A DNA stretch of 64,000 nucleotides, from NCBI RefSeq assembly GCF_056746865.1, contig NZ_CM163382.1. One strand, written 5' to 3'. Below the pieces are notes generated by a model. The model saw nothing but the letters and a program-made list of their open reading frames with translations. It made no database searches and was not told the origin of the DNA. Below, one piece after another: positions 1 through 30,591 of this stretch (position 1 is the stretch's first letter; every line of letters begins with the position of its first letter). The position numbers and the translations under genes are program-made.

Positions 1-1581
1 ATTCAGGAAATCACGCAATATATCCTGAATAATTTCCGCCAGAAAACCCACCGTACTTTCCCTGGTTCCAAAGGTTTTAATGCCATGCTGGCAGTAAGCA
101 GCGTGGATGCTGCAAAAGCCTATTATGCGACGTTTAAACGGTTACAAGAGGAAGCCGCTAATAAATCTGTAACTTATAAACCGCTGCGTGTTGCGACAAT
201 CTTCTCCTTTGCCGCTAATGAAGAACAAAATGCCATTGGTGAAATTTCCGATGAAACTTTTGATACCAGCGCAATGGACAGCAGTGCTAAAGAGTTTCTT
301 GACGCTGCAATTCGTGAGTATAACAGCTATTTTAAAACTAACTTCAGCACCGACGGTAACGGTTTTCAGAACTACTATCGTGATTTAGCCCAACGGGTTA
401 AAAATCAGGATATCGATCTGTTAATTGTCGTGGGAATGTTTTTAACCGGCTTCGATGCTCCAACATTAAACACGCTATTCGTCGATAAAAACTTGCGTTT
501 TCACGGCCTGATGCAGGCATTCTCCCGCACCAACCGCATTTATGACGCGACTAAAACCTTCGGTAATATTGTCACGTTCCGGGATCTGGAACGCTCAACC
601 ATTGATGCCATAACGCTGTTTGGTGATAAAAATACCAAAAATGTGGTTTTAGAAAAGAGTTATGCAGAGTATATGGAAGGCTTTACTGATGCTGCCACTG
701 GTGAAGCTAAACGCGGCTTCATGACAGTAGTTTCAGAACTGGAACAACGGTTCCCTGACCCTACCAGTATTGAAAGTGAAAAAGAGAAGAAAGACTTCGT
801 TAAACTGTTTGGCGAATACCTGCGTGCCGAGAATATCCTGCAAAACTATGATGAATTTGCCACGCTAAAAGCCCTGCAACAAATCGATCTTAGCGATCCT
901 GTTGCGGTAGAAAAATTCAAAGCAGAACATTATGTGGATGATGAAAAGTTCGCTGAATTGCAAACAATTCGTCTCCCTGCTGATCGCAAGATTCAGGATT
1001 ATCGTTCTGCCTATAACGATATTCGCGACTGGCAGCGCCGTGAGAAAGAAGCTGAGAAAAAAGAGAAATCAACCACTGACTGGGATGACGTAGTTTTTGA
1101 GGTCGATTTGCTGAAGTCTCAGGAAATAAACCTGGATTATATCCTTGGACTGATTTTCGAACACAACAGACAAAATAAAGGCAAGGGCGAAATGATCGAA
1201 GAGGTCAAACGCTTAATTCGTTCAAGCCTGGGGAACCGTGCTAAAGAGGGCCTGGTGGTCGATTTTATTCAGCAAACGAACCTGGATGATTTACCGGACA
1301 AAGCCAGCATCATTGACGCATTCTTTACGTTTGCTCAACGCGAACAGCAACGTGAAGCAGAAGCCTTGATCAAAGAAGAAAATCTCAATGAAGAGGCGGC
1401 GAAACGCTATATTCGCACATCTTTAAAACGCGAATACGCCACCGAAAATGGCACGGAATTAAACGAGACACTGCCCAGACTCAGTCCTTTAAATCCGCAA
1501 TATAAAACGAAAAAACAGACTGTTTTTCAAAAAATTAGCGCATTTATTGAAAAATTTAAGGGGGTGGGTGGAAAGATTTAG
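1..1581 (+). CDS. hsdR: Type I restriction enzyme R subunit (HsdR), C-terminal ~526 codons; 5' end lies upstream of the window
   Basis: Reading frame is open from nt 1; helicase motif VI region [31 protein letters not shown]; stop TAG (1579-1581) forms part of the TTAG flank of the adjacent IS5. Confidence 0.8.
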
Positions 1582-1728
1582 GGAAGGTGCGAATAAGCAG
1601 GTCATTTCTTCCCAAGCTGACTCGCTGATTAAAATTTCGCGGATCTGGGCCGATTTTTTTCCCGCAAACACATCGAATCGGCCTGTTTAGGCTATTTTTT
1701 CCACCATTTCTGGCGTTATTTCCGGTTT

Positions 1729-4015
<2,287 letters not shown>

Positions 4016-4184
4016 TCAGGAACTTGTTCGCACCTTCCCTAAAAAAAGCAGATGATTTTCATTATTATCGCAGGATAATTGTGCGCATATTTTCCATGCG
4101 GATAAGAATACTTATTCATGGAAATAATAATTTCCAGGTCATCAAGTGAAATCTGTTAACGCAAAGAGTGTTCCACCCTGCCCC

Positions 4185-4682
4185 TCACACCATCTCAAGT
4201 TTTACCGCGTCATAACCACACTGAACCAAACATTCACCGCAACCATTACATATTGCAGCATCGATTACAGGCATTCCGCTTTCGTTGATTGAGCATGCCT
4301 GAAGTGGGCATAGATCGACACACTGTTTGCAACTGCGCACCGGATTAACACAATTTGCTTTAAAAACGGGACGCAATCCGGTGTCGAAACGAGCCTGCGG
4401 ACGTAATGCCTCAGTGGAACATGCAGCTATACATAAGCCGCAGCCGTCACAACTGGCAAATTCAATCACCAATTGCGGATAGCCATCTTCATGCCGGTTG
4501 AGAATGCCCATGGGACAGGCATTAATACACAAATCACACTGCGTGCACTGCACACGAAACTGCGCATCAGGTAACGCGCCGGGAGGTAAGGAGTGCACAG
4601 GTAATATCGGTGTTGTTACCGGGCGTGCCGCGCTGACAAAGGCCCGAAATAGCCCACGTCGGCTAACATACCGATGAGACAT
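4185..4682 (-). CDS. 4Fe-4S ferredoxin-type protein (NapF/YdhY-like, four Cys clusters); start uncertain (alternative ATG at 4715)
   Basis: Four CxxCxxCxxxCP motifs; N-terminal SRRGLFRAF; last gene of the DMSO-reductase-type operon. Confidence 0.6.
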   Translation of the reverse strand: MSHRYVSRRGLFRAFVSAARPVTTPILPVHSLPPGALPDAQFRVQCTQCDLCINACPMGILNRHEDGYPQLVIEFASCDGCGLCIAACSTEALRPQARFDTGLRPVFKANCVNPVRSCKQCVDLCPLQACSINESGMPVIDAAICNGCGECLVQCGYDAVKLEMV

Positions 4683-4711
4683 TAACTCCTGATAATAATT
4701 TTCTGACTTAC

Positions 4712-5308
4712 TCATCCAAGAAAGAGCCGTTTGGTTGGAGGATTTAGTGCCTGTTGCTGCTGATAATCCTGCAGAAACAGTGTCGCAATCTGCGCCAACT
4801 TCGCGTAAAACGCACTGACAGGGTTGCGCTGTAATAACTCCAGATAACGATATCCCCACGGCAGCAAATGCGTTTCCAGCAATTGATTCGCTGCGCGTTC
4901 TTTCCCCTCTGCCAGCAAGGCGCTACAGGCAAGCAGCATCAGGCCAAACTGATCTTCCGGTTCATTTATACAGGAATCAAACGTCATTCCCTGATCACGA
5001 AGGAACTTCCGGTACTCGGCAGTGCTGTCCCCCATCAACAGATTATCTTTTTCGAGATATACCGAACCCCAGGGTGGTGCTGGCATTTCACCCTGTCCTT
5101 CAAAAAGAACAGAAAATTGCCAGAGATGCTGCTCCTCATCCGGGATTGACCAGTCAGAGCATAATTCAGCCACCTGGCGGGGATCGCGCCAGGGGTATAT
5201 CTCATCCAATGTCGGCAGACAGTCAAACAGTGCCCGAACTTCAGGACGCGTGGGAGAATAGTAAAACAGGGCACCAAGAATACGCACCAGTACGGCTGGG
5301 GAAGGCAT
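4712..5308 (-). CDS. DmsD/TorD-family Tat-proofreading chaperone
   Basis: VRILGALFYY...PWGSVYL...EPEDQFGLMLL similar to E. coli DmsD; SD AGGAG upstream of the ATG at 5308. Confidence 0.65.
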   Translation of the reverse strand: MPSPAVLVRILGALFYYSPTRPEVRALFDCLPTLDEIYPWRDPRQVAELCSDWSIPDEEQHLWQFSVLFEGQGEMPAPPWGSVYLEKDNLLMGDSTAEYRKFLRDQGMTFDSCINEPEDQFGLMLLACSALLAEGKERAANQLLETHLLPWGYRYLELLQRNPVSAFYAKLAQIATLFLQDYQQQQALNPPTKRLFLG

Positions 5309-5362
5309 GATTAAACACTCCTGAAAGCAGAGGTGGCCGGGCAAACACCGGCCACTCACAGG

Positions 5363-6139
5363 TTACATAGGGATGGTCCAGAGGTTGTAGAAACCGATCC
5401 GACCAACCAGTTCAGCAGCAATAACCACCAGTGCAGTCATCGCCAGCACAGCTTGCCCACTTTTCATGCGTGCATAGAGCAGTGCCCCAATAACACCCAG
5501 CGCCAACAGAATGGCCTGAGCGGTAAACCAGGTGGACTGCGCAGCGGTAATAACGCCATCAGCACTCATTAGCGTGGAAATATAACCCGGACGCAAACAG
5601 AAACTCGCCAGAATCGCCAGTACACTTACCAGCAGCCCCAGACGACGAACGCCAAACAACGCCGCCAACATGCCGCCACCGATAAGTGCAGTTAGCACCA
5701 TCATCATGGTGGTGTAAGAGGTACTCCAGGTCGCTACCGTTGCCAACTGGTAAATACGCGGGATGGCAAAGATAAACACGACTCCAATCGCAGCGGCCAG
5801 CCATACCAGTACTTTACAAAGCATTGCACCACCGCGATTTAACAGCAAACCGAGAGATCCCAGTCCTCCGGCTGCGGCAAAACATGCCGAAAGCACGATT
5901 TCGTTACTCATAGGAGAACTGCCGACACGGAATAGCATATTCAGCGCTCGCAGCGGCTGCCCGACATGAATGGTGCCAAGCACAACACCCACACCAAACA
6001 AGCACATCACCGAAAAGAGACCAATCGCCATACGACGTGGCTCAATTAATCCCATGGCACCGCCAATCAGCAGCAGAATAAACGCCCCCACTGCGCTCTG
6101 GGTAAATACGGTGAAAAAGACCAGTGGTAACTCATGCAT
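5363..6139 (-). CDS. DMSO reductase-type membrane anchor subunit (DmsC/YnfH-like)
   Basis: Polytopic hydrophobic 258-aa protein immediately downstream of the Fe-S subunit; SD GGGAGG. Confidence 0.7.
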   Translation of the reverse strand: MHELPLVFFTVFTQSAVGAFILLLIGGAMGLIEPRRMAIGLFSVMCLFGVGVVLGTIHVGQPLRALNMLFRVGSSPMSNEIVLSACFAAAGGLGSLGLLLNRGGAMLCKVLVWLAAAIGVVFIFAIPRIYQLATVATWSTSYTTMMMVLTALIGGGMLAALFGVRRLGLLVSVLAILASFCLRPGYISTLMSADGVITAAQSTWFTAQAILLALGVIGALLYARMKSGQAVLAMTALVVIAAELVGRIGFYNLWTIPM

Positions 6140-6758
6140 GGCGCACCTCCCGAATGTTCATGATCGCCCCTTCTTTGTCGCCCGTAGGTCGCGCCAGCGG
6201 ATGCGGTTTAATTATCAGGTTAGGATGCGTAAACGAAGCGGCAGGTAACGGTGCGATTTCATTTTCACTGCCATATTTCGCCCGCAATTCGTCGATAGGA
6301 CCAAAATCCAAAGCTCGCTGTGGACAGGACTCAACACAAATAGGCGGGAGATTTTTCTCCAGTCGGTCAAGGCAACCATCACACTTACGCATCACTTTAG
6401 CTTGTGTATCAAACTGCGGTGCACCATAAGGGCAGCGCATTTCGCAGTAACGACAGCCCACACAAACACTGTCATCCACCAGCACCAGGCCATCTTCTTC
6501 GCGTTTGTGCATCGCGCCGGTTGGGCAACCTGCCACACAGGTCGGTTCATCGCAGTGATTGCAGGCAATCGACAAATAGTAAGTGAAGGTATTGTTGTGC
6601 CAGCTTTCACCTTCTTTCACCCAGCTACCGCCACCATATTCATACACGCGGCGCAGCTTCGGTCCGACATCCAAATCTTTATTATCCTTGCAGCTTACCT
6701 GGCAGGTTTTGCAGCCAGAGCAACGCGAGGAGTCAACGTAAAAACCATACTGTTTCAT
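6132..6758 (-). CDS. DMSO reductase-type iron-sulfur subunit (DmsB/YnfG-like)
   Basis: MKQYGFYVDSSRCSGCKTCQVSCKDNKDL... with four ferredoxin Cys motifs. Confidence 0.8.
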   Translation of the reverse strand: MKQYGFYVDSSRCSGCKTCQVSCKDNKDLDVGPKLRRVYEYGGGSWVKEGESWHNNTFTYYLSIACNHCDEPTCVAGCPTGAMHKREEDGLVLVDDSVCVGCRYCEMRCPYGAPQFDTQAKVMRKCDGCLDRLEKNLPPICVESCPQRALDFGPIDELRAKYGSENEIAPLPAASFTHPNLIIKPHPLARPTGDKEGAIMNIREVRHA

Positions 6759-6771
6759 TGCGGATCACTCC

Positions 6772-9207
6772 CTAAGCGCGTTTGATTTCAACCAGGTTGG
6801 TATGTTGCGGGTTCCCTTTCGCCAGCGGCGACGGCAGGTGGCTGGTCAATGTGTTAATACATCCACCCACGTCCACACCGTTGCTGTCCAGTCGGGTCCA
6901 CGCGCCTTGCGGCATTGCCACCACGCCCGGCAGGATGCGCTGTGTCACCTTGCAGGGGATCTCCACCACACCGCGATCGTTGAATACATGGACCATATCG
7001 CCTGATTTCAACTGACGCACGCTGGCGTCTATCGGGTTGATCCAGACTTCATCCGGTACCGCTTCATGCAGCATCAGCACACTGGCATATGTTGAGTGCG
7101 TGTGACCTTTGGTGTGAAAACCGCTCATCTGTAGCGGATACTTTGCTGTCAGACTCTTGTTCAGATGGGACTCTGTCACTATACAAAATTCAGGAACAGC
7201 CGGAATGCGATCTCCTTCCGGTAGTGTCCAGGCTTTAGCCAGTTCCGCCAGAGTGTGCGAGTAAATCTCAATCTTCCCGGAAGGTGTCGTCAGTGGACTG
7301 GCAACCGGATCATGGCGGAAATCAGCAAGGATAATACTGTCCTCATCACGAGTACCTTGCTGATCGATAACCCCCATATTCATTGCAACTTCCCATTCAG
7401 GCAGATATGATCGCTTCTCTTTAACTTGTCCGTAATGCTTCGCCATCCACTCTGCCTGAGTACGCCCCTCAGTAAAACGCTCTCTTACCCCAAGATGCCC
7501 CGCAATATCTGCACAGATATCATAGGTACTGCGTACTTCCCACATCGGTGTGATCGTTTTTTGCATTGCAATCATGTAATGGTGAGAACCGGCTGCATAG
7601 GAACTGTCCACCAGATCCTCGGCTTCTAAGTAGCTAGTTTCTGGAAGAAGGATATCGGCAAAGCGGGCACTGGCAGTCATATGATTATCAATAACCACGA
7701 TAGTTTCGCACAGGCTGTCATCTTCAAGTATTTTGCGTGTACGATTGATATTTCCATGTTGATTCAGAAGTGCATTCCCGGCCTGGTTGAAGAACAGTTT
7801 AATACCGGTTTTCAGTTTATCCGCGCCTTTAACCCCCATAGTGGTGGCTGTCATTTTTTCCGGACTTTGAATCGCATCTGTCCACAGATAGCAGGGGATT
7901 GACACCTTAACGGGATTTTCACCAATCGGCAGAGCAGGAACACCATAAGGTGTTCCGTATGTCCAGTTCCCATTGTTGGTTCCTGGCAATCCAAAATGAC
8001 CCGTCAGGGCAGGAAGTATCTGAACCGCTCTGGAAGTCTGTTCACCATTTGCATGACGCTGTGGCCCCCATCCCTGGGCAATGAAACAGGCCCGAGCTTC
8101 GGCCATTTCACGTGCCAACTGGCGAATACGAATAGCCGGGATGCCACAGATATCTGCCGCCCATTCAGGTGTTTTTTCGACGCCGTCATCACCGTTACCC
8201 AGAACATAGTCTTTATAACTGGCATTTGGTTTCGCCGTTTCCGGAAGGGTGCTACGATCATAACCGACACAATAAGTATTGACTCGTTCTTCGTCGATCA
8301 GATTTTCTTTTATCAACGTGTGTGCAATAGCTGCTACCAGTGCAGCATCGGTTGTAGGGCGAATTGGTAACCATTCAGCATGTTCTGTAACAACAGAGTC
8401 TGTATAGCGCGGATCGATGATAATCACCCGGGCGCCTGATATTTCCAGCGCACGGCGCAGTTCTTCAACTTGCCCACCACCGGACATCCGAGTCTCAGAT
8501 AAATTCAGACCAAAAAAAACCACAAGATCAGAATGCGCAATCTGGCTAAAATGACTGGCAAACTGTACTCCTGTAGCACCATACGTGTAAGATGTGGCGG
8601 TAAAGTTTTGAGCGTTTGAGTAATTATTGTAATACTGCAGAAAACCGCCATTCAGGTTCAATAACCTTTTCCATGCGGGTGTTCCTTGGTTATGATAATA
8701 CGCGCCAGATTGATAATTAAAATAGATTGCTTCATTTCCATATTTTTCAGAAACGCGCTTTAATTCAGCGGCAATAAAGGCTGTGGCCTCATCCCATGAA
8801 ATACGTTTAAATTTCCCTTCTCCGCGTTTACCAACACGTTTCATCGGATATTTAATCCGGTCAGGGCTATAAACACGCCAGCGGCTGGAACGACCACGTA
8901 GGCAAGGTCGAATCTGATGTTCACCAAAAACAGAGTCGTCCTTCGCGTCCTCGGCTTCAATACGAACAATGCGTCCGTCTTTTACGATAACTTTTAATGG
9001 ACAACGACTTCCGCAATTCACCAGGCAAGCACTATGCCTGACGGTTTCAGCATTTTCGTTGGTTTTACCGGTATCCGATGTTTCGGCCCTGACGGTTGTG
9101 GAAAAAGGCAAAGTGATGGCGTTGCTTAGTGCAACGGCAGCTCCCAATTTTGCAGTTGTAGTCACCGCATCACGTCGGGAGATTGTTGTATTTAACAACT
9201 CTTTCAT
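6772..9207 (-). CDS. Molybdopterin oxidoreductase catalytic subunit, DMSO reductase family (DmsA/YnfE-like), with Tat signal
   Basis: N-terminal SRRDAV twin-arginine motif; CLVNCGSRCPL Fe-S motif; TRMSGGG and GWGPQRHANGE segments as in DmsA. Confidence 0.8.
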   Translation of the reverse strand: MKELLNTTISRRDAVTTTAKLGAAVALSNAITLPFSTTVRAETSDTGKTNENAETVRHSACLVNCGSRCPLKVIVKDGRIVRIEAEDAKDDSVFGEHQIRPCLRGRSSRWRVYSPDRIKYPMKRVGKRGEGKFKRISWDEATAFIAAELKRVSEKYGNEAIYFNYQSGAYYHNQGTPAWKRLLNLNGGFLQYYNNYSNAQNFTATSYTYGATGVQFASHFSQIAHSDLVVFFGLNLSETRMSGGGQVEELRRALEISGARVIIIDPRYTDSVVTEHAEWLPIRPTTDAALVAAIAHTLIKENLIDEERVNTYCVGYDRSTLPETAKPNASYKDYVLGNGDDGVEKTPEWAADICGIPAIRIRQLAREMAEARACFIAQGWGPQRHANGEQTSRAVQILPALTGHFGLPGTNNGNWTYGTPYGVPALPIGENPVKVSIPCYLWTDAIQSPEKMTATTMGVKGADKLKTGIKLFFNQAGNALLNQHGNINRTRKILEDDSLCETIVVIDNHMTASARFADILLPETSYLEAEDLVDSSYAAGSHHYMIAMQKTITPMWEVRSTYDICADIAGHLGVRERFTEGRTQAEWMAKHYGQVKEKRSYLPEWEVAMNMGVIDQQGTRDEDSIILADFRHDPVASPLTTPSGKIEIYSHTLAELAKAWTLPEGDRIPAVPEFCIVTESHLNKSLTAKYPLQMSGFHTKGHTHSTYASVLMLHEAVPDEVWINPIDASVRQLKSGDMVHVFNDRGVVEIPCKVTQRILPGVVAMPQGAWTRLDSNGVDVGGCINTLTSHLPSPLAKGNPQHTNLVEIKRA

Positions 9208-9287
9208 TTTATTTTCTCACATTGTTTTCATAATTATTATTAATACGACATATGAGGTAATCATAAAGAATTAGTAATTCATCATGA

Positions 9288-9301
9288 TTGATTATGATCA
9301 A
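9288..9301. promoter_or_regulatory. Consensus FNR box (TTGAT-tatg-ATCAA) about 87 bp upstream of the dmsA-like start
   Basis: Perfect TTGATnnnnATCAA palindrome; a TATGAT -10-like hexamer lies ~32 bp downstream on the coding strand; a second near-consensus site GTGATcattATCAA at 9337-9350. Confidence 0.5.
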
Positions 9302-9560
9302 GTGAGATTTGGTGCTTAGCACAAATATAAATATTTGTGATCATTATCAAAATGTAAATGATAACGCATCTTTATTATCATTTGAGATTAAATATCACGC
9401 AGCGTTAATCTAAGGAAGGTGCGAATAAGCAGGTCATTTCTTCCCAAGTTGACTCGCTGATTAAAATTTCGCGGAGCTGGGCCGATTTTTTTCCCGCAAA
9501 CACATCGAATCAGCCTGTTTAGGCTATTTTTTCCACCATTTCTGGCGTTATTTCCGGTTT

Positions 9561-11847
<2,287 letters not shown>

Positions 11848-11870
11848 TCAGGAACTTGTTCGCACCTTCC

Positions 11871-12465
11871 CAAGAGAACGCAACAGCGCACTTGCTTTGC
11901 CACAGTTGAATTTTGTGCCGTAACGATGTGCAAGCATGTAAGCATAAGGAGTCAAGGTATAGCGTGTTACTTAGTTACTCGGATTAACAATCCCAACGTA
12001 CAGAGCGGCGGATTTAGAGAGTCAGCGCAGTCCCTGCTCCGGCAGTCAGTGGCAGGCGGCGTACTGAAGCAAACCATTATCGATACCGGCATCGGCGATA
12101 CCATCGGCATGCTGATGTCACACGGCAATATTTCTCCCTACATCATGGCGTGGTTGATAACCGTGCTGATCCGTCTGGCAACGGGTCAGGGCGTGGTCTC
12201 AGCCATGACGGCGGCGGGGATTATTAGCGCAGCAATCCTCGACCCGGCAACCGGTCAACTGGTGGGCGTCGACCCGGCGTTGCTGGTGCTGGCAACAGCG
12301 GCTGGCTCCAACACGCTGACCCATATCAACGATGCTTCGTTCTGGCTGTTCAAAGGCTACTTTGATCTGTCGGTGAAGGATACGCTGAAAACCTGGGGTC
12401 TGCTGGAGCTGGTAAACTCCGTGGTTGGCCTGATAATCGTGTTGATCATCAGCATGATTGCATAA
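11871..12465 (+). pseudogene. GntP-family permease, 3' fragment truncated by IS5 copy B
   Basis: C-terminal transmembrane sequence ...[34 protein letters not shown]...[27 protein letters not shown]...; the track ORF 11554-12465 reads through from the IS5 end. Confidence 0.6.
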
Positions 12466-12514: not shown

Positions 12515-13210
12515 TCAACAATCCTCAATAATCAGATATACCGCCTTCACCGGACCATGCACCCCAACCACCTTGATAAGCTCAATATCCGCCGTCGAGC
12601 TGGGTCCACTGATGATATTAATGCACGATGGCATACGCTCACCGGCCTGTGCTTTCTGATGCAGTTTTTCTGCCAGCTGCGCCACGCGCGGCAGGATGGT
12701 GCTTTTACGCAGCACGAAAATAGAGGACTCCGGCAACAGGCTCAGGGAGCGCCCGCGCTCCGGTGCGGAAAACAGCACCACGCCGCCGGACTCGGTCAGG
12801 CCATATTCGGCATACACCACGCCGACTTTCGCCTGCTCGGCCTGGGTAATATTTTCGCTACCACGCGCCGGATCCCAGACCACGGCGTTGCATTCCTGCT
12901 GCAAGCGTTCGGTGATGCCCAGCTCCACCAGCCGGCTGTCGCCGCTCAGCACCACCGGCTGCTGACCCAATTCTTCGCACAGGCGCAGTGCCGCGTCTGC
13001 GGCCTGGTCCTCGCTGGTCAGTTCGCAGCGGGCCAGCATCACTTCGCTGGCAAACTGGATAAACGCAGAGCAGCGCTGCTCGGGGCTAAGCTCGGTCAGG
13101 CGCTCGTTGGCATAGTTGTTAACCGGTGCGGCATCCGCTTGCGGTTCGAAGCGCAGCGGGCGACCCAGCGCCTGGGCGATGGTGTTTAAAAACGCGGTAC
13201 GGTTATCCAT
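12515..13210 (-). CDS. lutC: Lactate utilization protein C (LutC/YkgG family)
   Basis: MDNRTAFLNTIAQALGRPLRFEPQ... matches remembered E. coli YkgG; SD AGGAG; start overlaps lutB stop. Confidence 0.8.
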   Translation of the reverse strand: MDNRTAFLNTIAQALGRPLRFEPQADAAPVNNYANERLTELSPEQRCSAFIQFASEVMLARCELTSEDQAADAALRLCEELGQQPVVLSGDSRLVELGITERLQQECNAVVWDPARGSENITQAEQAKVGVVYAEYGLTESGGVVLFSAPERGRSLSLLPESSIFVLRKSTILPRVAQLAEKLHQKAQAGERMPSCINIISGPSSTADIELIKVVGVHGPVKAVYLIIEDC

Positions 13211-14630
13211 TCTTTTTCTCCTGCGCCTGATGTTTCTTAAACCAGCTGCGGAAGCTCTCGCCGTCAGCATCAGGCAGATCGCGCGCCTCCATCCAGTCAC
13301 CAATCGCGCCAACCTTGAGCGGGGTTTTGCCGCCATTGATAAACCAGCTCGCCGCATGCGCGCCCGCCATCATCCCGACTTTCCACAGCCCCGGATGGCT
13401 ATTGGCATAGGCGAACATCTTGATCGCCCGTCGCTCGGCTTTCGGCGTAATGCCCTCCTCGGCCATCACCCGGCGATGACGCAGGATCAGTTTTGACAAC
13501 GGAATACGCACCGGGCAGACGCTGTCACAAGCCGTGCACAAAGAACAGGCGTACGGCAGGTCTTTAAAATCTTTATAGCCGCCGAGCAGCGGAGAAATCA
13601 CCGCGCCGATAGGGCCGGGATAGATAGAGCCATAGCCGTGCCCGCCGATGTGGCGGTACGCCGGACAGGTGTTCATACAGGCTCCGCAGCGGATGCAGCG
13701 CAGCACATCGCGAAACTCTGAGCCCAGCACCTGCGAGCGACCGTTATCGACAATCACCAGATGGAACTCTTCCGGTCCGTCAACGTTGTCCGCATCACGC
13801 GGGCCGGTCAGCCAGGTGTTGTAGCCCGTCAGACGTGCGCCCACGGCGCTGCGCGCCAGCATGGTAATCAGCACATCCACCTCGGCAAAGGTCGGCGCGA
13901 TACGCTCCATGCCCATCACCGCAATGTGCGTTTTCGGTAGCGTGGTGCACATGCGCGCGTTGCCTTCGTTGGTCACCAGACACACCGAGCCGGTTTCCGC
14001 CACGGCAAAGTTACAGCCAGTAATACCGATTTCGGCACTGAGGAAATCCTCGCGGATCTTCTGACGAATGAACAAGGTCATAGCTTCCGGGGTTTCCGGG
14101 CCGTCGTACCCCAGACGTTCGTTCAGCACGCGGCGGATCTGGTAGCGATCTTTATGAATCGCCGGAACCACGACGTGCGAAGGCGGATCCTGATCCAACT
14201 GCAGGATATATTCCCCGAGATCGGTTTCGATCACCTGGATTCCGGCATCCTGCAACACATGGTTGACGCCGATTTCTTCGGTCACCATCGACTTGGACTT
14301 CACCACCTTCTGCGCATTTTTACTCTGCGCGACCTGCAAAATGTAGCGAGTGGCATCTTCTTTGGTTTTGGCGAAATAGACGTGTCCGCCGTTTTCCGTC
14401 ACTTTCTCGGAGAGTTGGTACAGGTAAGCGTCGAGGTTGCTCAGAACGTGATCGCGGATCTGGCTGGCACGATCGCGCCATTCTTCCCAGTGGCCTAACT
14501 CATCGACCATTTTTTGCCGATTCGCGCCGATACGCTCCTGCGCATTAGCCACGGCTTTGCGCATAATCGGATCTTCTATCTGCTGACGAATACGCAGTTT
14601 AAATTCTACATCGCTGGTTTTTATCGACAT
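13203..14630 (-). CDS. lutB: Lactate utilization iron-sulfur protein B (LutB/YkgF family)
   Basis: MSIKTSDVEFKLRIRQQIEDPIMRKAVANAQERIGANRQ... and CxxCxxC motifs. Confidence 0.85.
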   Translation of the reverse strand: MSIKTSDVEFKLRIRQQIEDPIMRKAVANAQERIGANRQKMVDELGHWEEWRDRASQIRDHVLSNLDAYLYQLSEKVTENGGHVYFAKTKEDATRYILQVAQSKNAQKVVKSKSMVTEEIGVNHVLQDAGIQVIETDLGEYILQLDQDPPSHVVVPAIHKDRYQIRRVLNERLGYDGPETPEAMTLFIRQKIREDFLSAEIGITGCNFAVAETGSVCLVTNEGNARMCTTLPKTHIAVMGMERIAPTFAEVDVLITMLARSAVGARLTGYNTWLTGPRDADNVDGPEEFHLVIVDNGRSQVLGSEFRDVLRCIRCGACMNTCPAYRHIGGHGYGSIYPGPIGAVISPLLGGYKDFKDLPYACSLCTACDSVCPVRIPLSKLILRHRRVMAEEGITPKAERRAIKMFAYANSHPGLWKVGMMAGAHAASWFINGGKTPLKVGAIGDWMEARDLPDADGESFRSWFKKHQAQEKKNG

Positions 14631-14640
14631 CTCTTTCCCC

Positions 14641-15360
14641 TCAGCGGCTCATCAGCACTTCAGCAATATGCATCACTTTGACCGGCTGGCCTTCCCGTTG
14701 CAGTCGACCGCCAATGTTCAGCAGGCAGCTAACGTCTGCGCCAATCAAAAATTCCGGCTTTGCGTCCATCAGATGTAATACTTTCTCTTTCACCATCTCA
14801 CCGGATATCTCGGCCATCTTGACCGAGAACGTCCCGCCAAAGCCGCAACAGGTATCCTGATCGGCAAACGTCAACAGCTCCAGTCCGCGCACGTTTTTCA
14901 GCAGCGTAAGCGGCTCTTCCTTCACTCCCAGTTTGCGGGTCAGGCTACAGGAAGGATGATACACAGCGCGGCCCTGCAGGCTGGCACCAACGTCCACCAC
15001 ACCCAGTTTGTTGACGATAAAGGAGGTGAGATCCTGCATACGCGCGGAAACTTTCTCAGCACGCAGCGCCCATTCCGGTTCATCGGCCAGATACGTCGGG
15101 TAGCTTTTAACCGCGTAGGTGCAGGAGCCCGCCGGGGAGATAATCGGATCGTCGTTGTCTTCCAGCGCGGCGATCAGGTTTTTCATCCCGGGGATCGCCT
15201 CTTTGATGTAACCGCTGTTGATGGCTGGCTGACCGCAACACCCTTGCTTCTCGGGGAAATTAACGCGACAACCCAGTTTTTCCAGCAGCAATACGGAGTC
15301 TCGTGCCATCCGTGATTTCAGTGCGTCACCAATACAGGTGACAAAGAAATTTACATTCAC
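14641..15360 (-). CDS. lutA: Lactate utilization protein A (LutA/YkgE family, Cys-rich)
   Basis: MNVNFFVTCIGDALKSRMARDSV... with CCG motifs. Confidence 0.85.
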   Translation of the reverse strand: MNVNFFVTCIGDALKSRMARDSVLLLEKLGCRVNFPEKQGCCGQPAINSGYIKEAIPGMKNLIAALEDNDDPIISPAGSCTYAVKSYPTYLADEPEWALRAEKVSARMQDLTSFIVNKLGVVDVGASLQGRAVYHPSCSLTRKLGVKEEPLTLLKNVRGLELLTFADQDTCCGFGGTFSVKMAEISGEMVKEKVLHLMDAKPEFLIGADVSCLLNIGGRLQREGQPVKVMHIAEVLMSR

Positions 15361-15434
15361 AATAACTACTCCATTGCTTCATTTCTGTTTATTGCGCTTG
15401 ATATCGCGATATCAAACAAATGTTCATTCGTATT

Positions 15435-17132
15435 TCATGCCCAGTTTTTATGTTTGCTGGTTTTACCAATACCTGGATTCATAGTGTTGGTCGGATCATT
15501 TTCCTGATAAAAACGTGCCAAATTTTCCGGCGCTTTATACAGATGGCCGACATTGTGTTCCGCCGGATATTGCGCTCCGCGTTGGCGCAGTAATTCCAGC
15601 ATCTGTTCTTTTAACGCGTGGGCATCTACGCCTTTTTTAACGATATAATCCTGATGGAATACATGGCACATAAAATGGCCGTAATAGAGTTTATGCACCA
15701 ACTGACTGTCAATTTCCGCAGGTAAATACTCATACCATTCGGTATCATTGCGGCGTAATGCAATATCCAGCGCGAGAATATCCTCAACCTCGTCAGAATG
15801 AACGGCCTGATAACGAATGGCAGCACCCGCGGCGGCAAAACGATGCAGAAACGCCTTACTGCCCTCTTCCGCGGTACAGGTAAAGAACGCGCCCTCGGCC
15901 GATTTAAAATAGTCCGTTAACCATGCCTGGGCTTCGGCCACACCCTCGCCGGACATTTTCAACATCAGATGGTGTTCATAGTTATCGCGCCAGGTCTTCA
16001 TCCGCGCCGGGAGATGGCTCGGGAACAGATGGCTAAAAGCCTGCATCGCGCGGTCAGTAAAGTGCGGGCGAAAGATCTTCACCTTCTCAAGTATGGCCTC
16101 GGTACGCCCCTTCAGGTTGAAGAAGAACGGCATTTTGTCCGTGCCAAGTTTGTCGATCATCAGGAAGGTATCTTTGCTGTATTTCTCTGCAATATCATAG
16201 ATATCGCGGTGCATATACTCCCCAGCAACCGGCAGGTTTGTAAAATTCGCCAGGATGTGGCGGCGAATCTCAGTCAGGACATCAGTCTGATTGGTACCGA
16301 TATAAAAGACCTGCTGGTTCTTCTCGGCTTCAAAGGTATCCAGACGTACGGCAAACACCGCTAACTTGCCCGCGCAGCCAGAGGATTCAAACAGGCGATC
16401 CGGGTCAGCGTTGTAACGTGCTGGCGTGTCGGCATTGATGTCCCGCACGCGGCTAACATAGTCGTGATCGTGCGCGTGACGTCCGTCATGGTTGACGAGC
16501 GCGGCTTCAATCACATTGTTATCCAGCCGGGCAAGGATTTGCTCTGGCGTCTGACCTAGCTCAATGCCAAGGTGATTGACCAGCTGCAAGCGTCCCTGTT
16601 CATCAATGCGGGCAAACAGCGACATCTCGGTGTAAGCCGGGCCTCGCTGGACCAGAGAACCGCCCGAGTTATTACAGATACCGCCGATAACCGACGCGCC
16701 GATGCACGAAGAGCCGATCACCGAATGCGGCTCACGGCCAAACGGCTTCAGCGCCCTTTCCAGCGAGTACAGCGTGGTGCCCGGATAAGCCAGCACCTGC
16801 TTGCCCTCATCCAGCACATGCAGACTGTCCAGCCGCAGCGTGCTGATAATGACGATCTCGCGGTCGTAGTCATTACCATTTGGCGTCGAACCCTCGGCCA
16901 GGCCTGTGTTCGACGCCTGCATCAGGATTATTTTATCAGCCTCAACGCAGGCGCTGAGGACTTTCCAGAGTTCAAGCAAAGAGCCGGGGATAACCACCGC
17001 CAGAGCATCACCCTGACCCGAGCGGAATCCCTTACGGTAACGCGCAGTTTTTGACGGTTCGGTGAGGATATGAGCAGGGCCAACCAATTGGGTAAGAGTC
17101 GTCAAAAAGGTCTTATTATCAGTATGTTTCAT
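15435..17132 (-). CDS. dld: FAD-dependent D-lactate dehydrogenase (Dld paralog)
   Basis: High similarity along the whole length to remembered E. coli Dld (ARYRKGFRSGQGDALAVV...NPGIGKTSK). Confidence 0.8.
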   Translation of the reverse strand: MKHTDNKTFLTTLTQLVGPAHILTEPSKTARYRKGFRSGQGDALAVVIPGSLLELWKVLSACVEADKIILMQASNTGLAEGSTPNGNDYDREIVIISTLRLDSLHVLDEGKQVLAYPGTTLYSLERALKPFGREPHSVIGSSCIGASVIGGICNNSGGSLVQRGPAYTEMSLFARIDEQGRLQLVNHLGIELGQTPEQILARLDNNVIEAALVNHDGRHAHDHDYVSRVRDINADTPARYNADPDRLFESSGCAGKLAVFAVRLDTFEAEKNQQVFYIGTNQTDVLTEIRRHILANFTNLPVAGEYMHRDIYDIAEKYSKDTFLMIDKLGTDKMPFFFNLKGRTEAILEKVKIFRPHFTDRAMQAFSHLFPSHLPARMKTWRDNYEHHLMLKMSGEGVAEAQAWLTDYFKSAEGAFFTCTAEEGSKAFLHRFAAAGAAIRYQAVHSDEVEDILALDIALRRNDTEWYEYLPAEIDSQLVHKLYYGHFMCHVFHQDYIVKKGVDAHALKEQMLELLRQRGAQYPAEHNVGHLYKAPENLARFYQENDPTNTMNPGIGKTSKHKNWA

Positions 17133-17563
17133 GGAGGGCGGCTCTCCGCTCCTTATATCAGGGCCAGTGAAAATGGCTATAAGTTCATTTGTATGACAAA
17201 GCAGAATATTCCCTCAATCAATATCCACATGCAATACCCCATTTTATTTCTTTCGGTACCGCTCACATTTTTTAATGAAATTACCACCGCCATATAATTC
17301 ATACCTCGCCCTTTGAGGGGATGCCAAAACACTTATTTATTGCAAAGATCATCCCATACCTATTAATGATTAACTCTAATGGGTGTTGTAATATTTAGTG
17401 GTTATTCATATTTAATAAAAAAAATAACATTATTTATACAATTATTAACCTTTATAACTTTATTTCACTGAAGCGATTCAGTTAGCATTTTTTATTTTAT
17501 TATTCAGGTAGCTTCCTTCCCCATAAATATAGCTCAGTCTAAAAAAGTAAATCGGGAATTGTA

Positions 17564-19117
17564 ATGCACGAATATTTAATGTTTGCTCTGGCACTCTCTC
17601 CTTTGCTGCTGATGGTATTTTTAATACTGAAATTAAAAATGCCCATCCATTATTCCGTACTGATCTCTTTGGTATTCACCGCTGCACTATCGGCAATATT
17701 CTGGGAAATGCCCGTACAAAATTTGAAAGCCGCGATAGGCTATGGTGCACTGAAGGGACTATGGCCGATCGTAATTGTTATCCTCGGCGCTATCTTCAGT
17801 TATAACGTCATGCAGGCGACCAAAGCGCTGGATATTCTGCGCGATATTCTCGCCAGCATTAGCGAAGATAAGCGTATTCAGGTGCTGCTGATTTCATGGT
17901 GTTTTGGTGGATTTCTTGAAGCCGCTGCGGGCTATGGCACGGCGGTCGCTATTCCGATCGGTATTCTCATTGCGCTGGGATTCAACCCGTTGAAGGCGGC
18001 GATTGCTTCCCTCGTAGCAAATACCGTTCCGACCGCATTTGGCGCGGTTGGGATCCCGGTTTCTATTCTGGCAGAGCAGGTTAATCTGCCGGTTTATACC
18101 TTAGGCGGAACCATTATTTTGCAGCTCGCGCTGTTTAATATCCTGCTGCCGTTTGTGATTGTCTGCATTATTGGCGGTGGCCTGAAAGCCATTCGCGGCG
18201 TATTTCTGATCACGTTGATTTGCGGCATTTCCACGCTGATTCCGCAATATTTTGTCGCCATCCATCTTGGCGCGGAATTACCCGCTTTTGCCGGTAGCCT
18301 GGTCAGCCTGTTTGCCGTGGCGATGGTCAGTCGCCTGCGCAAAGGGAAAACCGATCCAGAGTGGCGCATTGAGGTCAGCCATACCCGCGAAACCACGCCG
18401 CGCTCGGCAAAAGTGTTGTTCCGCGTGGGCTCTATCTATCTGTTTATTTTTGTGTTTATCCTGCTGTGTTCGCCGCTGTTTCCGACAATAAAAGGCGCGG
18501 CATCCCAACTGGCTTCGGTGCTGCATTTCACGTTGGCTGACGGCAAAACGATGGCACTGAAAGTTGAATGGGTGACCACACCAGGGATGCTGATTATCTT
18601 TGCGACCATTATCGGCGGTTTTATTCAGGGAGCGTCCGCACGCGGGATGCTGGAAGTATTTATCAAAACGATTTTCCAGCTTAAAAACTCTATCGTGGCA
18701 ATTATGGCGATCGTCGCGCTGGCCACGGTGATGGATCTCAGCGGGATTATCTCCACACTGGCGCAGTCGATTGTCGATCTGACCGGCAGCTCGTACGTCT
18801 TCCTCGCCCCGGTGATTGGCGCGCTGGGCACGTTCGTTACCGGCAGCGATACCAACTCGAACATTCTGTTTGGCAAGCTGCAAACCATAGCTGCCAGCAA
18901 GTTACATATCGATCCCAACTGGCTGGCGGCGGCCAATACCTCTGGCGCTACGGGGGGCAAAATGATTTCGCCGCAAAGCATCGCCATCGCGGTTTCTGCC
19001 ACCAAAATGGACGGTCAGGCCAATCAGATCATGTCTGGCACCATGAAATACTGCTGTGCCTACATTGTGATCCTTGGCCTGAAAGTCGGTCTCTTTTATT
19101 ACTGGTTTATGGCGTAA
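17564..19117 (+). CDS. Lactate permease (LctP/LldP/GlcA family)
   Basis: 517-aa polytopic protein; conserved GSDTNSNILFGKLQ and GKMISPQSIAIA segments of LctP-family transporters. Confidence 0.8.
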   Translation: MHEYLMFALALSPLLLMVFLILKLKMPIHYSVLISLVFTAALSAIFWEMPVQNLKAAIGYGALKGLWPIVIVILGAIFSYNVMQATKALDILRDILASISEDKRIQVLLISWCFGGFLEAAAGYGTAVAIPIGILIALGFNPLKAAIASLVANTVPTAFGAVGIPVSILAEQVNLPVYTLGGTIILQLALFNILLPFVIVCIIGGGLKAIRGVFLITLICGISTLIPQYFVAIHLGAELPAFAGSLVSLFAVAMVSRLRKGKTDPEWRIEVSHTRETTPRSAKVLFRVGSIYLFIFVFILLCSPLFPTIKGAASQLASVLHFTLADGKTMALKVEWVTTPGMLIIFATIIGGFIQGASARGMLEVFIKTIFQLKNSIVAIMAIVALATVMDLSGIISTLAQSIVDLTGSSYVFLAPVIGALGTFVTGSDTNSNILFGKLQTIAASKLHIDPNWLAAANTSGATGGKMISPQSIAIAVSATKMDGQANQIMSGTMKYCCAYIVILGLKVGLFYYWFMA

Positions 19118-19538: not shown

Positions 19539-20053
<515 letters not shown>

Positions 20054-20075
20054 CTATTTCCCTGCCTCTCCTCCC

Positions 20076-20109
20076 CGAACCGGACGTGCACCTTTCAGCG
20101 CATCCGGCT
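20076..20109 (-). ncRNA. Group II intron domain V (catalytic hairpin)
   Basis: 34-nt GAGCCGG...GAAA...CCGGTTC hairpin matching the domain V consensus, just 3' of the reverse transcriptase stop. Confidence 0.75.
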
Positions 20110-20115
20110 CTCCAT

Positions 20116-21639
20116 TTAAATGCTGGCGAACGCCATTGCCACTTCTGTAAAGCGCGATGTATACGTGTTTCTGGTCTCCGTCCTCAGATAGGGATTACCT
20201 TCGGGTAGCCGCCAGCGGAACAGCTTCTTGCCTTGCCCCACCAACCGGTACAGTATTTCGCCGCTGAGCTTGCCGTGATTGGTTTTACCAAATAAAACCC
20301 ACGTTTTGCTCTGACCCGGTTTCGGTGATTTACACCACCACCTCATCAGGGAAGCGATACCTGTACGGTATTTGCGGGCCAGCCAGTGAGCCAGCTTCCA
20401 GAACACGACACGGTCGATATAACTGAAGACTTTGGCCTTAAAATCAACGAACTGATAGAACATGGCCCAGCCTTTCAGTTTTCGGTTGAGTTGTTCAGCC
20501 ATATCGACTTTGCTTTCACTGTAGTTGCCTGATAACAGTGCTGTCAGCGATGCGGCGAAGTTTCTGGCTTTCTCCTGCGGGATCGTTGAGACCACTCGCA
20601 TCTCGCCATAACGACTGCGTTTGCGAATGATCCTGTGCCCCAGAAAGATAAAGCCGTCATTAACATGGGTGATTTTAGTCTTATCCATGTTCAGCCTGAG
20701 TTTCAGACTGCCTTCGAGCACACCCCGACACTCCTCCCTGATGGCTTCCGCCTGTGCTTTGGTGCCTTTGACGATGAGGACAAAATCATCGGCATAGCGG
20801 CAGTACGCCACCGCGGGTTTCCACTGCCAGTTTTCTCTGACCGCCGTACTTCGGCCCCGTTGGATACTGTTATTCCAGTACCACCGATCTTTTCTGGCTT
20901 TCCCGCTCAGGTAGCGCTCATGCAGGTATTGATCGAACTCATTCAGCATGATGTTCGATAATAGCGGCGATATAACACCGCCCTGTGGCACACCTTCACT
21001 GGCCGCCCGAAAGAGACCGACATCGATATGTCCCGCCTTGATGGTTTTCCACAGCAGAGTCATGAAACGTGCGTCACTGATCCTGCGGCGTACAGCCTTC
21101 ATCAGCAGTCGATGATGTACGGTGTCGAAGTAACTGGACAGGTCGCCTTCAATCACCCAGCGTCCCCGGGTTTCACCACAGTCTGTGAGCTGTAATTTCA
21201 CCGTGCGGATCGCGTGGTGGACACTGCTCTCAGGCCGGAAGCCATATGAGAGCGTATGAAAATCACTCTCCCATATCGGCTCCATCGCCATCAGCATGGC
21301 CCGCTGAACAATACGATCCCGCAACGCGGGGATACCCAGTGGTCGCAGTTTGCCGTTGCTTTTAGGGATGTAAACCCGTCTGGCGGGCAAGGGCTGGTAG
21401 TGGCCTGAGAGTAATTCATCCCTGAGGATTTGCAGCTCAACAGCCAGTCTGGCCTGTAGCATTGTTTTGTTCACGCCATCAACGCCGGGGGTATGGGCCC
21501 CCTTTGATGAAAGCGTGATCCGCGCCGCTTCAGCCAGCCATTCTGGTTGTGTTATCAGACGCAGCAGCCGTTGAATCCGTAGGGACGGATCGGTGGCTGC
21601 CCATGTGGCAAGCTTGCGTTGCATTTCGCTGATTATCAA
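20116..21639 (-). CDS. Group II intron-encoded protein (reverse transcriptase with maturase domain); TTG start
   Basis: RT motifs including the YADD box (AVAYCRYADDFVLIV) and GKLRPLGIPALRDRIVQ; located in intron domain IV. Confidence 0.85.
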   Translation of the reverse strand: MIISEMQRKLATWAATDPSLRIQRLLRLITQPEWLAEAARITLSSKGAHTPGVDGVNKTMLQARLAVELQILRDELLSGHYQPLPARRVYIPKSNGKLRPLGIPALRDRIVQRAMLMAMEPIWESDFHTLSYGFRPESSVHHAIRTVKLQLTDCGETRGRWVIEGDLSSYFDTVHHRLLMKAVRRRISDARFMTLLWKTIKAGHIDVGLFRAASEGVPQGGVISPLLSNIMLNEFDQYLHERYLSGKARKDRWYWNNSIQRGRSTAVRENWQWKPAVAYCRYADDFVLIVKGTKAQAEAIREECRGVLEGSLKLRLNMDKTKITHVNDGFIFLGHRIIRKRSRYGEMRVVSTIPQEKARNFAASLTALLSGNYSESKVDMAEQLNRKLKGWAMFYQFVDFKAKVFSYIDRVVFWKLAHWLARKYRTGIASLMRWWCKSPKPGQSKTWVLFGKTNHGKLSGEILYRLVGQGKKLFRWRLPEGNPYLRTETRNTYTSRFTEVAMAFASI

Positions 21640-22295
21640 AGGTCTTCACCTCGTTAGGTCAGTTAATTCACGTCGCAAACACATTCAAACTGCTTCCCTT
21701 CGCCATGTAATGGGCTTTCCCCATCGCGGACTACTACGGAAGCTCCGCCAGCCAGCGCGTCATCGGAGCCATGCCCCCTTAACATCCGTCGCTGACCTTC
21801 CCCGGTTTACCGGCCTGGACTCAGGCATACTGAGGAGGCTGCCCGTCGCACTCTTTATCCTTGCTTGCCGCAAGTTGGCAGAAGTCAGCAATGCAAGCGT
21901 GATAGACGCTGCTGCCCCGGTGTTTCGCATACATGTCAAAACACCTTCGACCGGCAGTGCTTACGTATCACTGCCAGTTCCTCCTGCACGGCCTGTCAGA
22001 TCACGTAGGCCGTGGTGACGTTTTCAACCCACAGAGGCGGATTAACGGGTTCATGTTCTTCAGCCTTTCAGTACTTAACCTTGAGGATCATCTCGGCTTA
22101 GTGATCTCGCCTCAATCCCCGTTGTCAGCGGGTTACATCACCCTGCGGGCATGCCGCAGGTCACTGCCGCTCAGGTTCTCCACCGTCACACCCGGTGGGA
22201 TTGTTGGGTTTCTCATCGTGAGTTACCGGTTCAATATTCCAGACAGACTCGCGGTTCATTTAAGCATCCATGCCCGCCCTGAACTCCGGGCACAC

Positions 22296-22713
22296 CGTAA
22301 GTAAAATCAGCCACCCACAACTGGTCAGGACGTTCTGCCACAAACTGACGGTTTACGCGGTCGCCTGCGGCAACGGCTTTCCGGCTGACGGTAGTGCGGA
22401 CCTTTTTACCCCGGAGAACACCGGCAAGTCCCATAACCGCCATGAGGCGCGCCACTGTACATCTGGCTACCCTGATTCCTTCCCGTAACAACTGACGCCA
22501 GACTTTACGCACACCGTATACCTGATGATTCCCATCGTATACGCGCAGTATCTCTTTCTTCAGCCAGTCATCGCGCTGCGCACGGGCACTGCGTTTATCA
22601 GGATGATGTCGCTGTTGCTGACAGTGGTAATACGTTGACGGGGCAATATGTAGTTCACTGCATACCGGTCCGACCCCGTACAGCTTACGCAGCTTATCCA
22701 GCAGTGGCATCAC
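22296..22713 (-). pseudogene. IS629-like transposase OrfB, N-terminal ~139 codons, interrupted by the intron after ...QLWVADFTY
   Basis: [33 protein letters not shown]...; the track ORF continues 22 codons into intron sequence. Confidence 0.75.
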
Positions 22714-23036
22714 TTTTTCCAGAGGCGGTCGAACTCCACCTTCGCAAAATAAGCGGAAGCCTGGCGAAGGATATCGTTACTGCGGCGCAGTTCACGATTT
22801 TCACGTTCCAGCTCTTTCAGACGCTGACGTTCAGCGGTGGTGAGCCCGCCATCACCGCCTCCGGTATCCCGCTCATGCTGGCGCACCCAGACACGCAGAG
22901 TCTCCGGTGTACAGCCAATCTTTGGGGCAATGGAACAAATTGCCGCCCACTGTGAGTCATATTCGCCCTGACTTTCCAGAACCATACGAATCGCCCTCTG
23001 ACGGACTTCGGGGGAAAAACGAGTATTTTTAGTCAT
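22710..23036 (-). CDS. IS629-like OrfA (HTH)
   Basis: [50 protein letters not shown]... matches remembered IS629/IS1203-type OrfA. Confidence 0.8.
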
Positions 23037-24119: not shown

Positions 24120-25667
<1,548 letters not shown>

Positions 25668-25715
25668 TCACCCGCAACAAAAATGACGTGCACAACGGTT
25701 ACGGGCAGGAAACGG

Positions 25716-26642: not shown

Positions 26643-26671
26643 TCATACTCCATGATTTTCATCAGTCATAT

Positions 26672-26983
26672 TCAGCGGATGACAGACAGCTCAAACATCG
26701 CCATATCCGTGGTTCCGGCTGGAATTGGATACCAACCCGCATTCCGGAGCAGGGCAGCGAGGGCAGACACATCGCCGGTCAGGGGATGCAGCAACCTCCC
26801 CTGATAATCAAATGCCGCCTCAAGACGTGAGCGGGAAAGATAAAAGCTGCCGGCATCCCCGTTCGGAACCACGACATTACGCCCCTCCCATTTCCGGTCG
26901 CTCAGTATCCGCCAGCACCAGCCCTGCTCCCTGATGGTTTCCAGGGCGAATGTCAGGCGGAACAGGTCAGTCTGTACCGACAC
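26672..26983 (-). CDS. Hypothetical protein (103 aa) within the sugar cluster
   Basis: ORF co-oriented and tightly spaced with neighbours; no family recognised. Confidence 0.4.
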   Translation of the reverse strand: MSVQTDLFRLTFALETIREQGWCWRILSDRKWEGRNVVVPNGDAGSFYLSRSRLEAAFDYQGRLLHPLTGDVSALAALLRNAGWYPIPAGTTDMAMFELSVIR

Positions 26984-27769: not shown

Positions 27770-27832
27770 TGTGCTTTCCTTCATTACGGGTGAACCGAAA
27801 GTACTGCCGTCACCGACGGCAGTGGAATTATT

Positions 27833-30552: not shown

Positions 30553-30591
30553 GGGACTGAGTGCAGGGAGCCGTGACCGGCTCCGGTCCTT

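Follow-up and report, generated by a model that had tools for sequence, protein, structure and literature searches.

A probable FNR-controlled S-/N-oxide reductase operon of the DMSO reductase family on a mobile ISKpn26 unit

A stretch of 64,000 nucleotides of contig NZ_CM163382.1 (assembly GCF_056746865.1), here called the window, carries on its minus strand, from 4185 to 9207, five co-oriented and intact reading frames that are predicted to encode a molybdenum enzyme of the dimethyl sulfoxide (DMSO) reductase family together with factors for its maturation. The frames lie downstream of a perfect consensus site for FNR and between two copies of the insertion sequence (IS) ISKpn26. Judging from gene content, promoter and relatives, we consider it likely that they form a functional, FNR-controlled S-/N-oxide reductase operon carried on an ISKpn26 unit. 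Read in the direction of transcription, the locus contains:

9288-9301, minus strand: perfect FNR box, TTGATcataATCAA, centred 87.5 bp upstream of the ATG of the dmsA-like gene
9260-9265, minus strand: predicted -10 hexamer, TATGAT, 32 bp centre to centre from the FNR box, which is class II spacing
6772-9207, minus strand: gene A, DmsA-like catalytic subunit, 811 amino acids (aa), with PF04879, PF00384 and PF01568
6132-6758, minus strand: gene B, DmsB-like Fe-S electron-transfer subunit, 208 aa, 16 Cys
5363-6139, minus strand: gene C, DmsC-like, putatively quinol-oxidising membrane anchor, 258 aa, with PF04976 (3.4e-35)
5333-5355, minus strand: GC-rich hairpin in the 54-bp gap between genes C and D, 8 pairs of which 7 are GC, followed by a weak T tail
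4712-5308, minus strand: gene D, putative DmsD-type chaperone for proofreading of twin-arginine translocation (Tat) substrates, 198 aa, with the start used in RefSeq and in phage RCS47
4185-4715, minus strand: gene E, NapF-like Fe-S protein of the DmsE type, 176 aa, with an alternative start at 4682 in RefSeq

The products were scored in bits against the curated cut-offs of NCBIfam (TIGR and NF) and Pfam profile models. Gene A passes the dmsA_ynfE model TIGR02166 (1131.7 bits, cut-off 777.7) and stays below the cut-offs of the models for DmsA (NF011566, 897.7 against 1600), YnfE (NF041885, 929.8 against 1675) and YnfF (NF041884, 867 against 1650). Gene B is a DmsB equivalog (TIGR02951, 277.8 bits against 214.1) and the product of gene C has about eight hydrophobic stretches, so that a DmsB-type four-cluster subunit and a DmsC-type anchor are encoded directly downstream of A, as in the genes of a DmsABC heterotrimer. 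Gene D lies narrowly above the DmsD model NF008632 (163.8 against 162) and also matches PF02613. The product of gene E, annotated in its 531-bp form in RCS47, carries an N-terminal SRRGLF motif and four Cys motifs. B and C share 8 nt, and the ATG of gene E overlaps the dmsD stop codon in an ATGA. The hairpin between C and D may be an attenuator that separates ABC from DE, a role suggested by Haemophilus influenzae, in which dmsABC and dmsDE are the two main transcripts (PMC8340005). An Rfam scan of the operon and its leader found no riboswitch or other RNA family.

The catalytic subunit shows the three marks of the DmsA/YnfE subfamily, i.e., a Tat leader, the Cys motif of the N-terminal [4Fe-4S] cluster FS0 and a serine ligand to molybdenum. 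The leader, TISRRDAV...TLPFSTTVRA/E, aligns with that of Escherichia coli DmsA and is of a kind also common to YnfE and YnfF, and the FS0 motif, CLVNCGSRC...C, was found by alignment with DmsA, YnfE and YnfF. The Mo ligand is predicted to be Ser197, in YSNAQ, which aligns with S147 of Rhodobacter DorA and with S205 of DmsA; the latter residue is Ser176 in the older numbering of DmsA. Among solved structures, the nearest are those of Rhodobacter DMSO reductases (DorA, 296 bits) and of TorA-type enzymes, all of them S-/N-oxide reductases, and the match to type II enzymes such as the perchlorate reductase PcrA is confined to the N-terminal part of subunit A.

An earlier note on this DNA, made from its letters alone, had described the locus as a complete catalytic/Fe-S/anchor/chaperone set of the DMSO reductase family, resembling dmsABC and ynfEFGH, with a Tat signal on the catalytic subunit and a perfect FNR site followed by a correctly spaced -10. 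That description holds: the five intact minus-strand genes have family scores, TIGR02166 is passed and the subunit types match, the leader aligns with that of DmsA, and TTGATcataATCAA and TATGAT are spaced as stated. The span it gave runs exactly from the gene E stop codon to the base with which the FNR box begins. Its "four-cluster ferredoxin" stands as far as the four Cys motifs go, but as a simple electron carrier it gives way, by homology, to a maturation factor of the NapF/DmsE type (PMC8340005).

Subunit A is 49-50% identical to DmsA, YnfE and YnfF of E. coli K-12, which are 65-71% identical to each other; subunit B is 60% identical to DmsB/YnfG and subunit C 37-40% identical to DmsC/YnfH. 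Of 5426 complete E. coli genomes, 5422 have a dmsA of the K-12 type and 75 have the window operon. Because identity is low and the core dmsA is nearly universal while the operon is rare, the operon is, as far as its sequence tells, an additional enzyme next to the core ones. The alternative, that a copy of the core ynfEFGH-dmsD or dmsABC locus has moved here and no new enzyme is present, would agree with the likeness of the subunit types and with the presence of a dmsD gene, but it is refuted by the identities of all three subunits, and it would leave aside that the core dmsA is still in place in nearly all genomes and that a NapF-like gene is found in neither core locus; we give it virtually no chance. 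For ynfEFGH-dmsD in particular, two tandem catalytic genes, ynfE and ynfF, followed by G, H and dmsD were expected, and one catalytic gene together with the NapF-like gene was seen. The earlier note's view of an additional copy on mobile DNA is thus borne out by the genome counts and by the ISKpn26::ISEc31 direct repeats described below, and the near-identity to the core locus that it had proposed to look for is not there.

The closest relatives of subunit A lie elsewhere. In a protein search, the best match was a cluster representative with 96% identity, followed by proteins of Intestinirhabdus alba (85%), Salmonella enterica (a large cluster, 81%), Trabulsiella (80%), Pectobacterium (79%), Brenneria (77%), Citrobacter freundii (76%), Providencia (69-74%) and Vibrio (about 62%). 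With regard to a donor species, this search gave no match above the 96% of the cluster representative, and a scan of one genome per species gave only I. alba, at 85%, as a close relative. In a neighbour-joining tree, STM4305 of Salmonella and the proteins of Intestinirhabdus, Pectobacterium, Citrobacter and Providencia form the group into which subunit A falls, and the E. coli proteins DmsA, YnfE and YnfF stand outside it. By the tree, an identity of 81-86%, the gene order and the FNR box, subunit A is assigned to the STM4305 clade. The order A-B-C-D followed by a NapF-like gene was also called in Pectobacterium and Citrobacter, and tblastn located all five genes in unchanged order in I. alba; the ratio of nonsynonymous to synonymous substitution rates (dN/dS) across the clade is 0.03-0.15. 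A tblastn search with the NapF-like protein gave no match in the Salmonella STM4305 locus. I. alba, Pectobacterium and Citrobacter have kept this fifth gene, and Salmonella appears to have lost it.

The 81% homologue of Salmonella follows melB-fumB-dcuB-dcuR and lies between dcuS and the rtsAB region, a context that corresponds to the island of STM4305 at pheU (PMC1360685). A mutant that lacks all three dmsA homologues regains DMSO-dependent anaerobic growth when STM4305 is provided in trans (bioRxiv 10.1101/2022.11.29.517730, Cruz et al.), and the protein is present in the proteome of anaerobically grown Salmonella. The earlier note had left the electron acceptor open. It is less open than that, since STM4305, 81% identical, supports growth on DMSO and the nearest structures are those of S-/N-oxide reductases. 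The acceptor is most likely an S- or N-oxide, DMSO included, and we lean somewhat towards DMSO as a physiological substrate.

The FNR box is the sole perfect FNR consensus (TTGAT-N4-ATCAA) in the 64 kb, where 0.09 would be expected by chance and at least one occurred in 9 of 100 shuffles. With the predicted -10 hexamer, transcription would start near 9253, placing the centre of the box at -41.5. The sequence TTATGATTA at the predicted -10 is kept in Salmonella. A box was retained in three of the four orthologous promoters that were checked: without mismatch in Salmonella STM4305 (88.5 bp from the ATG) and Pectobacterium (65.5 bp from the start codon), and with a single mismatch in Citrobacter (80.5 bp). 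From this comparison, the box is not a chance feature of the window copy. A sigma-70 scan did not call the predicted promoter; such a miss is expected because a class II promoter lacks a -35 element, and it speaks neither for nor against the promoter. The start codon lies 206 bp from the end of the IS, and both promoter and FNR box are within the DNA segment enclosed by the two IS copies. Tandem FNR sites are found in the yfiD promoter, and a second, imperfect FNR-like site, TTGATaatgATCAC (9337-9350, minus strand, 9/10 match), 49 bp upstream of the first, was considered as such a tandem and dropped; it is not conserved in Salmonella and probably not significant. Near the predicted start there is also a NarL-heptamer-like TACCTCA (6/7 match), which is not conserved.

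The unit that carries the operon consists of:

1582-4038: left ISKpn26 (IS5 family), with ISEc31 (IS3 family) inserted in it at about 2516-3773
4039-9413: passenger segment of 5.4 kb, with CTAA at both inner junctions
9414-11870: right ISKpn26::ISEc31, a direct repeat of the left copy

The two repeats are 2457 bp each, ISKpn26 itself being 1196 bp, and ISEc31 is inserted at the same point in both. The aligned repeat of 2464 bp (1576-4039 against 9408-11871) contains 9 mismatches, two of which (1578 and 1581) lie just outside the IS. Because both copies bear the same ISEc31 insertion, the IS was duplicated after its disruption. In strain W2-5, ISEc31 is present in one ISKpn26 copy only, and E. 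coli strain 165 has a single intact ISKpn26. The inner junctions of the passenger recur in W2-5 and in phage RCS47. At the outer flanks of the window unit, TTAG, which includes the hsdR stop codon, and CAAG, there is no target duplication. Strain 165 has the same island with its single ISKpn26 at the TTAG/CAAG flanks and without the dms operon, a state which implies that the dms segment and one IS copy entered, or in strain 165 left, via recombination between IS copies. The window copy thus fits homologous recombination at a resident ISKpn26, not transposition.

The P1-like phage RCS47 (FO818745 / NC_042128) presents the other case. A stretch of 5368 bp (4040-9407 of the window) is 100% identical there and the CTAA inner junctions are kept, with the genes annotated as dmsA, dmsB, dmsC, a TorD-family chaperone and a ferredoxin. 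The RCS47 unit is inserted in imcA between two IS5 (ISKpn26/IS5) copies and is bordered by a perfect CTAT/CTAT duplication. Two IS copies with a 4-bp duplication outside them, the hallmark of a composite transposon of the IS5 family, are therefore found in RCS47 and not at the window flanks, and on the evidence of these junctions the RCS47 copy moved as a composite transposon. The chromosomal island of W2-5 and strain 165 lies between tRNA-Ile and nfeF, and several chromosomal copies are located near 0.7 Mb. Altogether, the unit is spread among P1-like phage-plasmids, other plasmids and the chromosomal tRNA-Ile/nfeF island.

The 75 E. coli genomes with the passenger (about 1.4%) comprise 26 with a chromosomal and 49 with a plasmid copy, and 72 E. 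coli genomes cover at least 80% of it. In PLSDB, 72 plasmids match, 64 from Escherichia, 4 from Salmonella and 4 from Citrobacter. Of the four Salmonella plasmids, three have the passenger on its ISKpn26 unit (two of them are listed with 99.9% identity and a size of 244-254 kb) and the fourth carries a 76% relative; the Citrobacter matches are partial and 73-78% identical, i.e., relatives and not the same unit. The sources listed for the carriers are often poultry, and also humans and water. The chromosome of EC2641 (NZ_JALDNN010000001, 628599-633361) contains a relative with 85.8% nucleotide identity, flanked by IS903B and with a 5'-truncated dmsA, which is a third, independent IS capture of the same type of operon. 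The operon is already known as an annotation in public records, including a published phage genome, and its sequence is not new. A literature search, which did not cover the RCS47 genome paper (PMC4249366), found no functional study of the mobile unit, and two surveys of P1-like phage-plasmids make no mention of a dms unit.

The only unexpected feature, and a new detail of this analysis, is that the catalytic gene is mosaic. Against the window, half of the carriers reach only 89.8% identity, and comparison of the window with plasmid pL37-2 (NZ_CP034590, 29819-35177) gives 98.8-100% nucleotide identity over the unit except for one block, in which identity is 63-77%:

6761-8863, minus strand: mosaic block of 2.1 kb, from about residue 115 of DmsA to its C-terminus

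The two forms are equally common, in 36 and 36 E. coli genomes, and both are found at the same imcA junction of P1-like backbones. Their proteins, of 811 and 808 aa, are 84% identical overall with a synonymous divergence (dS) of 1.4, and near the active site, after the Mo ligand, the window allele carries three extra residues (YGATGVQFAS against HGVYVGS). The core of the window allele is 87% identical to I. alba and 81% to STM4305, and that of the other allele 80% and 87%, respectively. The parts shared by the two forms compare with I. alba and STM4305 at 72% and 78% (leader/FS0 part), 76% and 80% (subunit C) and 66% and 73% (subunit D). Because these shared parts are nearer to Salmonella, the window core is most simply seen as an imported piece, which would make the window catalytic core recombinant. 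The existence of two forms of one unit indicates, from sequence comparison, a recombinational swap of the catalytic domain. It is conceivable, although rather doubtful, that the swap represents a natural change in substrate specificity and that a P1-transducible operon thereby gives gut E. coli, especially in poultry, an advantage in respiration on an oxide other than DMSO from host or diet.

Based on these results and on the homologous families, we propose that FNR would bind the consensus box at about -41.5 under anoxia and activate a class II promoter. The DmsA-like precursor would receive molybdenum bis(molybdopterin guanine dinucleotide) and the FS0 [4Fe-4S] cluster in the cytoplasm, while the operon's own DmsD would guard the Tat leader during cofactor loading and the NapF-like DmsE would probably aid Fe-S loading. 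The A-B dimer would then be exported by the Tat system and dock on the DmsC-like anchor, and menaquinol would supply electrons that pass by way of the four subunit B clusters and FS0 to the Ser-ligated Mo centre and finally to an S- or N-oxide, with DMSO as the best-supported substrate in this scheme.

The architecture and regulation would be the same if the physiological acceptor were something other than DMSO. Candidates include the sulfoxides of methionine and biotin, N-oxides of amines or heteroaromatic compounds, and oxyanions, for example selenate, tellurate or chlorate, of the kind proposed for YnfEF. By NCBIfam scores, DmsA and YnfE are not told apart, the cut-offs of all three specific models being far above the scores obtained, and in the STM4305 clade YYHNQ replaces the active-site loop GGTMTRSWPP of E. 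coli DmsA, which bears Thr177 (T148 in the old numbering), a specificity determinant. Tyr114 of DorA influences the preference for S-oxide or N-oxide, and the residue aligned with it varies: the window allele has Phe, E. coli DmsA has Leu, and the other allele shares Tyr with Salmonella; the alignment has low posterior confidence around this position, which tempers the argument, and we take it as a lead only. STM4305 is moreover only a secondary DMSO reductase in Salmonella. On the other hand, the single experimental result available for the clade concerns DMSO, and type II oxyanion reductases such as PcrA match the N-terminal part only. We therefore regard a substrate other than DMSO as a possibility of lower standing, and retain an S-/N-oxide reductase that accepts DMSO as the preferred reading.

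Several observations weigh against a functional operon of this kind. The support that STM4305 lends to a predicted activity of the window operon is indirect, and the recombinant window core is closest to the unstudied protein of I. alba and only 81% identical to STM4305. STM4305 itself is no substitute for STM0964, the main enzyme, and a mutant that lacks STM4305 alone has no phenotype (bioRxiv 10.1101/2022.11.29.517730). No FNR box was found within 400 bp in I. alba with up to one mismatch permitted. The best match of gene E, NapF (TIGR00402), reaches 94.5 bits and stays below the cut-off of 102.2, and the maturation role of DmsE-type proteins is itself derived from NapF. Finally, dmsA is truncated in some copies elsewhere (H114-H117 and EC2641).

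These truncations would also suit an operon that is inert, hitch-hiking cargo, captured by the IS, neither expressed nor assembled in E. coli and decaying, as would the disruption of both ISKpn26 copies in the window. The spread is recent and the copies are 99.9-100% identical, so that selection in E. coli is not measurable. Within the lineage, however, dN/dS is low, as given above for the clade, and the five frames are annotated at full length in the carriers listed, out of the 72 genomes that cover at least 80% of the passenger. A native promoter with its FNR box has travelled inside the passenger, the translational coupling is kept at the B/C overlap and the D/E ATGA, and two divergent catalytic cores are both maintained in one unit. 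Inert cargo thus appears very unlikely, and we continue to favour a working, FNR-controlled operon. Since promoter and maturation factors travel with it, it should be able to function as soon as it reaches a new host. The operon shows that what ISKpn26 units and P1-like phage-plasmids spread among E. coli and Salmonella includes, besides resistance genes, an anaerobic respiratory module. If the two alleles differ in substrate range, they offer a natural experiment on the specificity of DmsA-type enzymes; otherwise, the operon is one more accessory paralogue of a kind that is annotated routinely.

Other features of the window, within and beyond the IS copies, include:

3583-3705 and 11415-11537, minus strand: matches to the Hfq-binding small RNA isrC of Rfam (150 bits), one in each ISEc31, over the orfA/orfB overlap
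12515-19117: lactate-utilisation module (lutC, lutB, lutA, dld and an L-lactate permease), directly after the right IS
20026-22755: group II intron in a broken IS3-family element, with the RNA domain at 20026-20112, ltrA with an internal stop at about 20116-21624 and an ALIL pseudoknot at 22639-22755
24120-33822: raffinose/sucrose-type cluster of porin, sugar kinase, IIA-Glc-like protein, GH32 hydrolase, transporter of the major facilitator superfamily, alpha-galactosidase and LacI-type regulator
35000-43400: AT-rich hypothetical genes (GC 36-43%), ending in a tyrosine integrase (42042-43358) beside nfeF (43655-44419)

The lactate module also adjoins ISKpn26 on plasmids of Klebsiella and E. 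coli, and because it does so both here and there, ISKpn26 seems to string metabolic modules together in the island. The raffinose/sucrose-type cluster is annotated in the matching island of strain 165. In W2-5 and strain 165 the integrase is at the island end far from tRNA-Ile.

Among known systems, the dms unit of RCS47 is set apart from the window unit by its position in imcA, its CTAT duplication and an extra IS1, whereas the window unit occupies a chromosomal island, lacks a target duplication and carries ISEc31 in both IS copies. STM4305-STM4308 of Salmonella Typhimurium resembles the window operon in its proteins (A 81%, or 86% for the other allele, B 92%, C 80% and D 73%), in the A-B-C-D order, in its place in the tree and in a perfect FNR box at nearly equal distance (88.5 against 87.5 bp). 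It differs in that it sits in a tRNA-Phe island without flanking IS, and the recombinant window catalytic core is nearer to I. alba (87%) than to Salmonella (81%). By gene layout, the operon can be likened to dmsABCDE of H. influenzae, in which dmsABC is likewise followed, after a gap, by dmsD and by dmsE, a NapF homologue described as a maturation chaperone; gene E, 8 bits under the NapF cut-off, takes the corresponding place here. Anaerobic conditions induce the H. influenzae operon, for which control by FNR is described (PMC8340005), but it is a chromosomal core locus. With DmsABC and YnfEFGH-DmsD of E. coli, the window operon shares the subunit types, the Tat leader, the FS0 motif, the Ser ligand to Mo and membership in TIGR02166; it differs from them in its shorter anchor (258 aa against 284-287 aa), in having YYHNQ in place of the loop GGTMTRSWPP and in carrying chaperone genes of its own.

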